A stretch of DNA of 64,000 nt, taken from the NCBI GenBank assembly GCA_964554455.1, contig CAZKOW010000001.1:132951-196950 (forward strand). The letters run 5' to 3'. The stretch is from an uncultured Sphingopyxis sp. (lineage in GTDB: Bacteria > Pseudomonadota > Alphaproteobacteria > Sphingomonadales > Sphingomonadaceae). Of this stretch, positions 33,025 to 35,141 are shown one piece after another. Position 1 is the first letter of the stretch, and each line of letters begins with the position of its first letter. The position numbers were made by a program, and so were the translations under genes. The notes below the pieces were generated by a model. That model worked only from the letters and a program-made list of their open reading frames with translations, was not told the origin of the DNA and did not search any database.

Positions 33025-34668
33025 ATGCCCAATTTTTACTTTGCCGATCTGGTGCGCGAAACCAGCCATGCGACCGGCACCGGTGCGCTGGTGCTGGCCG
33101 GTGCGGTGCCGGGCCACCGGCGCTTTGCCGATATCGTCCCGCCGGGGGCCATTTTTCATTATGCCATCGTCGGCGTGACCCATGCCGACCAATGGGAAAC
33201 CGGCACTGGCGCGCTGGATGCCCAGGGGCGGCTGGACCGCAGCGCCGTCGCGGCATCGTCGGCGGGTGGCGGCTGGGTGGATTTTGGCCCCGGCCTCAAA
33301 ACGGTCGCGCTGACCGTCGGGTCGGGGTGGTTTGCGGGACAGGACAGCGCGGTGGCGGCGCTGGCGGCGGACCTTGCCGCCAAACAGCCGCTGTCGACGC
33401 TGCATCCGCTCACCTCCAACGCCAATGCGGGGGACCGCGTGGCGGCGCGGCGCGGGGCGGGCTGGGTCAATCTGCCCATCGAGGCGCTGGCCTGGCGCGG
33501 CGATGACGGCCGCTTTCGGCTCGCCGGGCCAATCGACCTGACGAACGGCAGCGCGGCAACGCCCGCGCTGGCGGTGGCGGGCGATGGCGACACGGGCCTG
33601 TTCAGCCCGGCGGCGAACACGCTCGCGCTGTCAACAGGGGCCAGCGAACGGCTGCGCGTGACCGATACGGGCCGCGTCGGCATTGGCACGGCGACGCCGT
33701 CCGTGAATGTGGAGATTACGGCGGCGGACCCCCAGTTTCGTATCCGGCAAACCGCGTCCAACGCCACGCCATTCGGGGTGGAGATTGGCGCGGGCGGCTT
33801 TGTCGATGCCGCGTTCAAATCGCTGCTCACCACGGGCGAGGTTCGCATCACCGCTGGCCGGAACAGCAGCTGGGGCGGCCATTTGACCTTTCACACCGAC
33901 ACGGTGGAGCGGCTGCGGGTTGCCGCCAATGGCAATGTCGGGGTGGGCACGGCGGCACCGGCCACCCAATTGCATGTGCACAGCCCGTTTTCCGAAGCCT
34001 TTCGCATCAGCACGGCGGCGGCGCGCGGCACCGGAAACCTGTTCCAGAGCTGGCACGATGCCGCTGGTCGCAAGGGCTATATCGGCTATGGCGCAAGCGA
34101 CGACAGCTTCTTTATCAACAATGAAATAGACGCGCCGGTGTTCATCTGGACCGGCGGGGCAGCCCGCCTGGTGATTACCGGCGCCGGCACCTGGGCGGGC
34201 ACCGACAATATTGCCGCTTTGGGCGCACCATCCGTCCGTTGGTCGGTGGTGTATGCGGCAACCGGCACCATCAACACGTCCGACGCGCGCGAAAAGACGT
34301 GGCGCGGCGGGTTGAACGCCGCCGAATTGCGCGCCGCGAGCCGCATCGCGCGCGAGATTGGCGTCTTTCAATGGAACGACGCCATCGCCGAAAAGGGGGC
34401 CGATGGCGCGCGGCTGCATGTCGGCGTCCGGGCGCAGGCGGTGTGGGCGATCATGGCCGAAGAAGGGCTGGTCGATCCCATCGGCAGGACCGGCAAGCCG
34501 GGAGCCACCCCCTATGCCTTTCTGTGCTGGGACAGCTGGAGCGACGGGAAGGGCGGGCGCAAGCGCCACCGCTTTGGCGTGCGCCCCGATCAACTGACGC
34601 TGTTCATCGCGGCGGCGCAGGAGGCGCGGCTGACGGCGCTCGAAGCGCACTGCCGGGGCGCGGCATGA
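33025..34668 (+). CDS. fibre/spike protein with C-terminal S74-type intramolecular chaperone
   Basis: 547 aa. Gly/Ala/Thr-rich beta-type middle, with 'GTINTSDAREKTW...VGVRAQAV' (SD-x-x-x-K autoproteolysis context) near the C-terminus. Confidence 0.65.
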   Translation: MPNFYFADLVRETSHATGTGALVLAGAVPGHRRFADIVPPGAIFHYAIVGVTHADQWETGTGALDAQGRLDRSAVAASSAGGGWVDFGPGLKTVALTVGSGWFAGQDSAVAALAADLAAKQPLSTLHPLTSNANAGDRVAARRGAGWVNLPIEALAWRGDDGRFRLAGPIDLTNGSAATPALAVAGDGDTGLFSPAANTLALSTGASERLRVTDTGRVGIGTATPSVNVEITAADPQFRIRQTASNATPFGVEIGAGGFVDAAFKSLLTTGEVRITAGRNSSWGGHLTFHTDTVERLRVAANGNVGVGTAAPATQLHVHSPFSEAFRISTAAARGTGNLFQSWHDAAGRKGYIGYGASDDSFFINNEIDAPVFIWTGGAARLVITGAGTWAGTDNIAALGAPSVRWSVVYAATGTINTSDAREKTWRGGLNAAELRAASRIAREIGVFQWNDAIAEKGADGARLHVGVRAQAVWAIMAEEGLVDPIGRTGKPGATPYAFLCWDSWSDGKGGRKRHRFGVRPDQLTLFIAAAQEARLTALEAHCRGAA

Positions 34669-34859
34669 TTGCGCGCGGCGATGCGATTGGCGGCGCGGCC
34701 CTGGCCGACACCGGACGGCGCACCCTGGCCAGCGAATGGCAGGGACCGGCCCTGCCGCTGCCCGCGCCGCCCGGACTGCCCGTGCGCGGCCAACCGCGCC
34801 GCCATCGTCCGCGGCGCTGACCCACCCACTTTCCGCAGCAATGAAAAAAGGAGCGGGCC

Positions 34860-35141
34860 ATGGCCCATGACATCAAGGACCCCGATGCGCGGGTCGATTA
34901 TCTGTTCGATTGGGGCAGCGATTATCTGGATGGCCAGCATCTGGTGGCCAGCAGCTGGCTGGTCGCGCCCGATGTCCCCGGCGGCCTTGCCATATTGGGC
35001 CACGCCCACGATCTGGTGTCGGCAAAGGTGACGGTCGGCGGCGGCCTGGCGGGCCAGGTTTATGCGCTCACCAACCGCATCACGCTCAGCGATGGGCAAG
35101 TCGACGAACGCAGCCTGGCCATCCGGGTGGACGCCCGGTGA
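34860..35141 (+). CDS. small phage fibre-adaptor-like protein
   Basis: 93 aa. 'KDPDARVDYLFDWGSDYL...GGGLAGQVYALTNRITLSDGQVDERSLAIRV' resembles, from memory, the KDP..DY.FDW family of small phage fibre-tail adaptor proteins. Confidence 0.45.
   Translation: MAHDIKDPDARVDYLFDWGSDYLDGQHLVASSWLVAPDVPGGLAILGHAHDLVSAKVTVGGGLAGQVYALTNRITLSDGQVDERSLAIRVDAR

Follow-up and report, generated by a model that had tools for sequence, protein, structure and literature searches.

The window examined here, a stretch of 64,000 nucleotides (nt) from an uncultured Sphingopyxis sp. (GCA_964554455.1, contig CAZKOW010000001.1, positions 132,951-196,950, forward strand), contains a head-tail gene cluster resembling that of RcGTA, the gene transfer agent (GTA) of Rhodobacter capsulatus, and within it, at 33025-35141, a three-gene cassette that stands between g5, which encodes the capsid protein, and g6, which encodes the head-tail adaptor. 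The reading that we favour, with a probability of roughly 0.6, is that the cassette is an accessory appendage module: it would supply a swappable receptor-binding fibre, docked at the neck of the particle through an immunoglobulin (Ig)-like "collar" on the g6 adaptor. The neck location as such, for which we draw on sequence and on analogy, has slightly better than even odds. The cassette probably decides which cells the particles stick to, and a role in recipient range is plausible, given that the tip of the fibre is hypervariable in sequence. The original prediction had been of a cis-encoded, two-gene fibre cassette in the head module, a candidate head spike or receptor-binding determinant. 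The cassette is there, with three genes instead of two, as an element that the GTA clusters of the Sphingopyxis group either have or lack; its fibre bears the signature of receptor binding, and the head spike is the less likely of the locations.

The first gene of the cassette (33025-34668, plus strand) encodes, as originally described, a protein of 547 amino acids (aa) that is rich in Ala (17.6%), Gly (12.8%) and Thr (8.0%) and carries the sequence NTSDAREK at residues 417-424. The suggestion that this motif belongs to a self-cleaving chaperone of the S74 type is borne out by Pfam, PHROG, PDB profile and fold searches, all of which agree. Residues 419-482 match Pfam Peptidase_S74 (E 4.9e-9; 36.8 bits against the curated cut-off of 22); over the last 170 residues there are matches to PHROG families of tail fibres and tail spikes, with E values as low as 7e-50; and the chaperone-bearing fibres 7y5s, 4uw8 (T5 pb1) and 3gw6 (endosialidase chaperone) are matched in the PDB with E values of 1.6e-17 to 4e-9, the first of these over residues 392-541 (E 1.6e-17). 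The domain opens with Ser419 and, five residues on, Lys424 (S419-D-A-R-E-K424), which is the spacing of the S74 family. The predicted autocleavage site (SDAREK, 34279-34296; translation checked) is strongly conserved: among 56 aligned homologues T418, D420 and K424 never vary and at least 90% retain S419, so that the Ser/Lys pair can be said to be in place.

The AlphaFold2 (AF2) model of the fibre (mean predicted local distance difference test score, pLDDT, 76.5) falls into four parts: a beta-sandwich at the N-terminus, which includes a helix over residues 100-118, a beta-rich shaft, a low-confidence stretch at 392-419, which sits immediately before the cleavage serine, and a C-terminal helical/beta domain that is confidently modelled (pLDDT 82-96 over residues 431-547, and 72 for residues 421-430). 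Foldseek places this last domain in the S74 chaperone fold, with matches to 3gw6 (E 4e-9), 3gud (template-modelling (TM) score 0.73, target-normalised) and 4uw8; the matches to the whole model are mostly to the chaperone, and the fold of the N-terminal domain is not placed. The intramolecular chaperone (residues 419-547; 34279-34665) is predicted to be released from the mature fibre.

How sequence conservation is distributed along the fibre is what suggests its function. The N-terminal domain (residues 1-150; 33025-33474), the putative particle anchor, is about 60% identical across homologues, and its invariant residues include M1, F6, A7, D8, R11 and E12; the sole match to residues 1-165 is a weak one to a PHROG tail-fibre family. 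When identity is followed along the fibre with the window as the reference (alignment A1), residues 1-150 and 391-540 score 53-79%, as does the chaperone domain, and residues 241-390 (33745-34194), the putative receptor-binding tip, score 9-20%, with low alignment occupancy and frequent insertions and deletions. Fibre lengths vary widely, from 409 to 613 aa in this alignment and up to 737 aa in a Sphingobium-type locus (L116). Anchor and chaperone domains that are both conserved, together with a hypervariable stretch just ahead of the cleavage site, make up, in sequence terms, the usual signature of a receptor-binding fibre. The protein search returned 422 homologues of the fibre, and those that bear an organism name are all from Sphingopyxis.

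The last gene of the cassette (34860-35141, plus strand) encodes a 93-aa protein that the original prediction had likened to small fibre-tail adaptors, and the likeness is close. The protein matches Pfam PF23148 ("Podophage GP4 fiber-tail adaptor protein gp77") from end to end, residues 6-89 aligning with profile positions 1-84 of 84 (E 1.2e-25; 90.3 bits, the curated cut-off being 27), and a profile of 26 relatives, mostly metagenomic and one from Sphingobium, finds 8jou_D with E 4.8e-11. Its AF2 model (pLDDT 92) is a seven-strand beta-sandwich, for which Foldseek returns from the PDB a single match below E 1e-3: 8jou_B, with TM scores of 0.84/0.87 and a root-mean-square deviation of 1.8 A over 90 columns. 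The 8jou entry is entitled "Fiber I and fiber-tail-adaptor of phage GP4", and the fold is Ig-like. Profile searches thus match both of the structural families that had been named, the S74 chaperone and the fibre adaptor. The Gp77 family is large, comprising at least 5243 clusters at 90% identity, for which the UniRef name is "phage fiber-tail adaptor protein". (One relative, in a metagenomic prophage, L122, is a 180-aa protein, encoded at 8001-8543, that is a tandem duplication of the Gp77 domain; its gene is the last of the structural module and lies near an integrase gene, with type IV-like Cas genes, Csf3 and Cas6b_C, a few kb beyond.)

Between these two genes the original prediction had seen a gap of 190 nt. 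The interval measures 191 nt and it is not empty: an open reading frame (ORF) for 51 aa (34665-34820, plus strand) starts by an ATGA overlap on the fibre stop. ORFs of 50-62 aa that start in the same way, with ATGA or GTGA on the fibre stop, are found in 41 of 43 related loci, conserved in position and in sequence: they share the motif ..ALxSRAIGDxxRRDLASEWxGP.., after which comes a variable tail, rich in Pro and Arg, with RKP as its usual ending. Gene callers annotate the ORF in S. granuli and in a Sphingobium-type contig (L117). On this sequence evidence it is a real gene. Its product has no match in Pfam, PHROG or PDB, and the idea that it might be a linker, or a partner of the collar comparable to the "rope" of other phages (see below), is accordingly only an analogy.

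The three genes and g6 form a tightly packed series, joined to one another by stop/start overlaps or a short spacer. The Gp77-like gene has a ribosome-binding site, AAGGAG, 7-8 nt upstream of its ATG, and its TGA overlaps a GTG of the g6 frame as GTGA at 35138-35141, just as had been noted originally; 4-nt overlaps (ATGA or GTGA) of the Gp77 stop with the g6 start recur in 39 of 45 related loci. A scan of 32700-35400 for promoters and terminators yielded nothing convincing. The neighbours are g5 upstream (31786-32934, plus strand; Pfam Phage_capsid, E 7e-87; likely start MGIEVK at 31786), whose nearest relatives are the capsid proteins of Sphingopyxis species, and downstream g6 (35138-35704, plus strand; PHROG 442, E 5e-19), the proposed docking partner of the collar.

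The cluster that houses the cassette is an RcGTA-like head-tail cluster. Its gene order, from about 26.6 to 44.4 kb of the window, is collinear with that of RcGTA, with homologues of g2 to g15 following one another within about 15-18 kb. Terminase, portal, capsid, adaptor, tube, DUF2460, hub, NlpC/P60-like (weakly), Rcc01698-like and DUF2793 proteins are matched by Pfam or PHROG in the window itself. Other genes are assigned by position, the overall order being taken also from S. granuli (L001): g3.5 (DUF6127-type) and g4 (an S78-type protease), for which the correspondingly placed genes of S. granuli match Pfam DUF6127 and Peptidase_S78; the g8-like gene (35701-36129), which has no Pfam family in the window, and for which the S. 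granuli gene matches Tail_completion_gp17; and the tape-measure ORF (37589-38170), which likewise has no Pfam family in the window, and for which there is a faint Tape_meas_lam_C match in another Sphingomonadales cluster (L118). Housekeeping genes flank the cluster, those for CysNC, PAPS reductase and HpcH aldolase at one end and those for OmpA and an ABC transporter at the other, and no integrase, replication or lysis module accompanies it.

The distribution of the cassette was surveyed with g5 as the anchor: 80 loci, each covering 10 kb on either side of g5, were fetched from species-representative genomes and queried with the proteins of the window. The Sphingopyxis group contributes 62 loci with both g5 and g6 on the contig (61 fetched, and the window). 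The cassette is present in about two thirds of these, at the same site in 42 of the fetched loci and in the window (43); 17 have no cassette and two have the adaptor only. Among more distant loci (Parasphingorhabdus and others) there is one carrier, 14 loci have no cassette, and none has only the adaptor. Where there is no cassette, g6 follows g5 after 100-300 nt (843 nt in one case, L036). Presence and absence are interspersed on the g5 tree, and the window's own two closest relatives, with g5 84-85% identical, are without the cassette. The same three genes occupy the same site in S. granuli and in the GTA cluster of a Sphingobium metagenome-assembled genome (MAG).

The exceptions to this have-or-lack pattern are instructive. 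The two adaptor-only loci, both of Sphingopyxis MAGs (L034, 11183-11683, and L053, 11148-11570), keep an intact Gp77 gene before g6 and have lost the fibre; in L034 the 3' end of the small ORF ("..RRATPRKP") still stands before Gp77, showing that the fibre was deleted. Both can be regarded as "collar-only" variants made by nature. In the distant carrier (L081) a fibre of 559 aa shares the N-terminal domain (40% identity) and has no S74 domain, and is followed by a 65-aa ORF and then Gp77. Clusters in other Sphingomonadales MAGs (L118/L119 and L121) have, between g5 and Gp77, unrelated genes of 347-390 aa and 124 aa; here too Gp77 lies directly before g6, with the same overlap. The cargo thus differs from one of these clusters to the next, and the constant element is Gp77 coupled to g6.

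Where might such a module come from? A metagenomic phage contig (L115) encodes a 545-aa protein of which the first 105 residues are homologous to the N-terminal domain of the GTA fibre (BLASTP E 2e-5; hhalign probability 90%, E 1.8e-6), followed by a 74-aa ORF that starts "MIGTSAIA..", like the small ORF of the GTA, then by Gp77 and the terminase. Judged by this arrangement, the three-gene unit looks like a mobile phage module that the GTA lineage has acquired. No similarity to the fibre N-terminal domain is seen in the proteins that actinophages and cyanophages encode upstream of Gp77.

A module of phage origin might of course be no more than a passenger, the remnant or "moron" of an unrelated prophage with no role in particles. 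The patchy presence of the cassette, its absence from the two closest relatives, and the occurrence of the same kind of three-gene module in a phage contig are consistent with that. Yet the ORFs are intact, and the ratios of nonsynonymous to synonymous substitution (dN/dS), computed over 60 species pairs, are 0.31 for the N-terminal domain of the fibre, 0.31 for its C-terminal domain and 0.29 for Gp77, which is like those of the neighbouring neck genes (0.38 for g6 and 0.31 for the g8-like gene; g5 and the tube gene, g9, have 0.13 and 0.11). The cassette is under purifying selection. Its GC content resembles that of its neighbours, its insertion site and its stop-start overlaps are identical across dozens of species, its losses are clean deletions (with the remnant in L034 the one leftover), and certain residues of g6, described next, are constrained only where the cassette is present. 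On the evidence of selection, synteny and the flanks we reject the prophage-remnant reading, and regard a mere passenger as scarcely credible.

If the fibre is a working part of the particle, to what is it attached? The comparative evidence points to g6. In a parsimony test on 49 loci, 35 with and 14 without the cassette, for the genes g5, g6, g8-like and g9, presence of the cassette requires 6 changes on the g6 tree, while random permutations require 12.3 on average and 8 at the least: none of 2000 permutations reaches 6. The g5, g8-like and g9 trees require 11 changes each, no better than chance. Three positions of g6 also go with the cassette: A34 is found in 42 of 42 loci with it and in 4 of 16 without it, N135 in 41 of 42 versus 2 of 16, and H153 in 40 of 42 versus 4 of 16. 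Cassette-linked columns are absent from g5 and from the g8-like gene, in which the best columns differ only by about 0.45 in frequency.

This bears directly on the possibility of a head spike or head fibre on the capsid vertices, with the Gp77-like protein as its capsid-binding base. Such an arrangement would suit a cassette that directly follows the capsid gene, and RcGTA does have head spikes, which bind capsule (PMC7296036). The RcGTA spike is nevertheless of another architecture, a jelly-roll pentamer with a monomeric fibre (PMC7296036), the g5 tree is unassociated with the cassette, g5 is without cassette-linked columns, and the fold of Gp77 matches a protein of the neck collar. We consider attachment to the capsid very improbable, and favour the neck over the head spike on two grounds: the solved homologue of the adaptor is a collar on a head-to-tail adaptor, and the comparative signal points to g6.

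A fibre of the same function could instead be mounted at the tail tip or baseplate, with the Gp77-like protein linking it to g12, the hub or g15. The tail fibres of RcGTA do attach at the baseplate (PMC7296036), and the Gp77 homologue of siphophages and prophages stands at the end of the tail module, behind minor-tail or fibre genes. The GTA examples seen, however, all have their Gp77 gene coupled to g6, some 3-7 kb ahead of g12, g13 and g15; the presence of the cassette tracks the g6 tree (in the 49-locus test, which covered g5, g6, g8-like and g9; with 34 loci neither g6 nor g13 was tracked); the only solved Gp77 homologue sits on a head-to-tail adaptor; and the cluster already has a homologue of the DUF2793 tail fibre right after g15. 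Mounting at the baseplate is, on balance, unlikely.

The structure on which the neck reading leans is that of the Ralstonia podophage GP4, in which 15 copies of the 93-aa adaptor form a ring round the dodecameric head-to-tail adaptor, where they hold the fibres (PMC11445570). GP4 gp77 (PDB 8JOU; PF23148) and the GTA protein are of the same length, have the same Ig-like fold and are significantly similar as profiles, and in both genomes the adaptor gene comes directly after a gene of about 550 aa, overlapping or nearly abutting it: the GP4 order is gp78 (568 aa), gp77, and then the tail fibres gp76 and gp75. There are differences: GP4 is a podophage with three fibre types, and its adaptor gene does not adjoin the gene of the head-to-tail adaptor. 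The GTA tail being long and non-contractile, fibres held by a collar on g6 would be neck fibres, not tail fibres. The myophage Bas63 also has a structurally analogous Ig-like collar on its adaptor, together with a "rope" and whiskers; the rope of GP4 is a separate protein (PMC12609058). The collar-whisker genes of the Felixounaviruses lie in the head-neck module (PMC11821841). The three-part logic of these systems (Bas63, Sf14) is the same, with a collar on the adaptor, an extended rope and threaded appendages, whereas their whiskers are dimers without an S74 chaperone and the rope is part of the collar protein; the likeness drawn here is one of arrangement. As for the fibre, the endosialidase of K1F and the L-shaped tail fibre of T5 (pb1) have the same C-terminal chaperone, with Ser and Lys five residues apart, after a beta-rich stalk; their N-terminal anchors and distal domains are unrelated to those of the GTA fibre, and they are encoded by phages rather than in a GTA cluster.

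RcGTA itself solves what is presumably the same problem, attachment to the surface polysaccharide of the recipient, in another way (PMC7296036; PMC10218006). Its tail fibre, Rcc00171, is pyocin-like, of the DUF2793 type, and binds the "megatron" g15; its head spike is a jelly-roll pentamer with a single fibre chain (PMC7296036; PMC10883770), the spike proteins GhsA/GhsB including a monomeric fibre with an N-terminal (I/L)-G repeat (PMC7296036). These appendages belong to other protein families than those of the cassette, and their sites are the capsid pentons and the fibre-binding domain of the megatron. Their genes lie outside the head-tail cluster, as the original prediction had it: the locus numbers Rcc00171 and Rcc01079/Rcc01080 (the head spikes) fall outside the rcc0168x-0169x range of that cluster (PMC7296036). 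The S74 fibre and Gp77 appear to be unrelated to the RcGTA tail fibre and head spikes, the head spikes being set apart by their description together with the Pfam and fold results.

These pieces can be put together in a scheme for the action of the module. The C-terminal chaperone would drive trimerisation of the fibre and then cut itself off at Ser419, using Lys424, to leave a mature fibre of about 418 residues, the last 150 or so of which would be the receptor-binding tip. The 93-aa Ig-like protein would form a ring of 12 or 15 copies round the g6 adaptor dodecamer just below the portal, like gp77 in GP4, and this collar would grip the conserved N-terminal domain of the fibre, the 51-aa protein perhaps serving as a linker. 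The resulting neck fibres would make the first, reversible contact with glycans of the recipient surface, and variation of the tip, together with presence or absence of the whole module, would set which strains a given GTA adsorbs to.

Several considerations weigh against this scheme. Particle production, and the location of the proteins in the particle, are predictions from sequence, and to our knowledge none of the GTAs of Sphingomonadales is known to be active. With 17 of 62 related clusters lacking it, the cassette is dispensable. The N-terminal domain of the fibre (residues 1-165), which the collar is supposed to grip, has no PDB match at E values up to 10 and no Pfam match in profile searches, and hhalign comparison with gp78, gp76 and gp75 of GP4 gives probabilities below 1%: what GP4 and the GTA have in common is the adaptor alone. 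Gp77 homologues elsewhere, in other phages and in prophages, close tail-fibre modules far from the connector genes, so that gene position alone is weak evidence. The statistical link to g6 is also less firm than the 49-locus test makes it appear. The trees are neighbour-joining trees without bootstrap support; in a second test, confined to the 34 loci that have all six genes, the association with the cassette is not significant for any of the six (g6 and g13 require 7 steps each, with p 0.26 and 0.25); at position 135 the g6 of the window itself carries Ala instead of Asn; and both the association of the cassette with the g6 tree and the g6 columns could stem from physical linkage and joint recombination.

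The neck genes of these GTAs are notable in another respect. The complete set of g6, the g7 stopper and g8 is not found: g7 (Phage_HCP-type) is absent from the window and from all Sphingopyxis-group loci, and g6 joins directly onto the g8-like tail-completion gene (junction at 35701-35704). L118, L121 and 13 of the more distant loci do have a g7, of about 110 aa, with an extra gene beside it, which is of about 72 aa in the distant loci and about 123-124 aa in the other two. The neck of the Sphingopyxis group may be built differently, or g7 may lie elsewhere in the genome.

The tail region, too, has its peculiarities. The g12 product (38174-40492) is a 772-aa fusion in which an NCTSP_N domain and a TIM barrel precede the DUF2460 distal-tail domain; Pfam assigns the extra domains (E 1e-97 and 1e-155) to its families of "non-contractile tail sheath protein", and the fusion is common to every Sphingomonadales GTA locus with listed called genes (L001, L116, L118/L119 and L121). 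The g15 protein is short (its called orthologues in L001 and L116 have 725 and 732 aa) and matches in Pfam only Phage-tail_3 and Rcc01698_C. Directly after g15 comes the gene of a 150-aa DUF2793 protein (43956-44408), of the same family as the RcGTA tail fibre Rcc00171; with this gene and the S74 cassette the cluster has two candidate devices for adsorption, both of them encoded in cis. A minus-strand ORF of 114 aa (36257-36601), its N-terminus resembling a signal peptide, separates the g8-like gene from the tube gene g9, and gene callers report an equivalent minus-strand gene at that site in S. granuli (L001) as well as in two Sphingobium-type loci, L116 and L117. Just downstream of the cluster an OmpA-family protein (44466-45665) has a run of about 30 Pro/Ala residues (PPPPAPPPPAPPAPPAPPPPPPPPPPPPPP) between its beta-barrel and its OmpA domain.

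In the head region a DUF3800 gene (28716-29477; Pfam E 7e-16) stands between the terminase gene g2 and the portal gene g3, with local GC down to 0.587; S. granuli has no gene at this site. The cluster also contains two palindromic copies, of about 95 nt, of an element resembling repetitive extragenic palindromes or miniature inverted-repeat transposable elements (REP/MITE), at 30605-30702 (g3/g3.5) and 31583-31683 (g4/g5); the copies are 86-94% identical and their arms 88-94% complementary. A third hairpin, at 31074-31157, lies in the 5' end of the g4 region.

What is new in all this is the context, that is, the GTA cluster, the coupling to g6, the have-or-lack polymorphism and the exchangeable cargo; the parts themselves belong to known families that already have names in the databases. 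A literature search turned up no description of a GTA cluster with an S74 fibre or with a Gp77 adaptor; since its coverage was incomplete, this is absence of evidence only. What is seen at the Gp77-g6 site is in some clusters an S74 fibre whose tip is hypervariable, in one a non-S74 fibre that shares its anchor, in others unrelated cargo of 347-390 aa, and in others again nothing at all. One can speculate, quite tentatively, that Sphingomonadales GTAs have a neck docking platform, a Gp77-type collar on g6, for interchangeable appendages, and that tip type, together with presence or absence of the module, might split a genus into GTA "transfer groups": a layer of kin discrimination encoded inside the GTA cluster.

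The locus bears on the question of which cells receive the DNA that GTAs carry. The one system studied in depth has its adsorption proteins scattered round the chromosome. Here a putative receptor-binding fibre, its adaptor and a small partner are found inside the head-tail cluster, differing between close species by their presence and by the tip of the fibre. Nature has provided the controls, in the form of about 43 clusters with the cassette, 17 without it and two with the adaptor only, and the cassette is a compact target for work on recipient range. If the proposed arrangement is true, it would be the first GP4-type fibre collar on a siphovirus-like particle, and would widen the reach of that solution to the problem of attachment.

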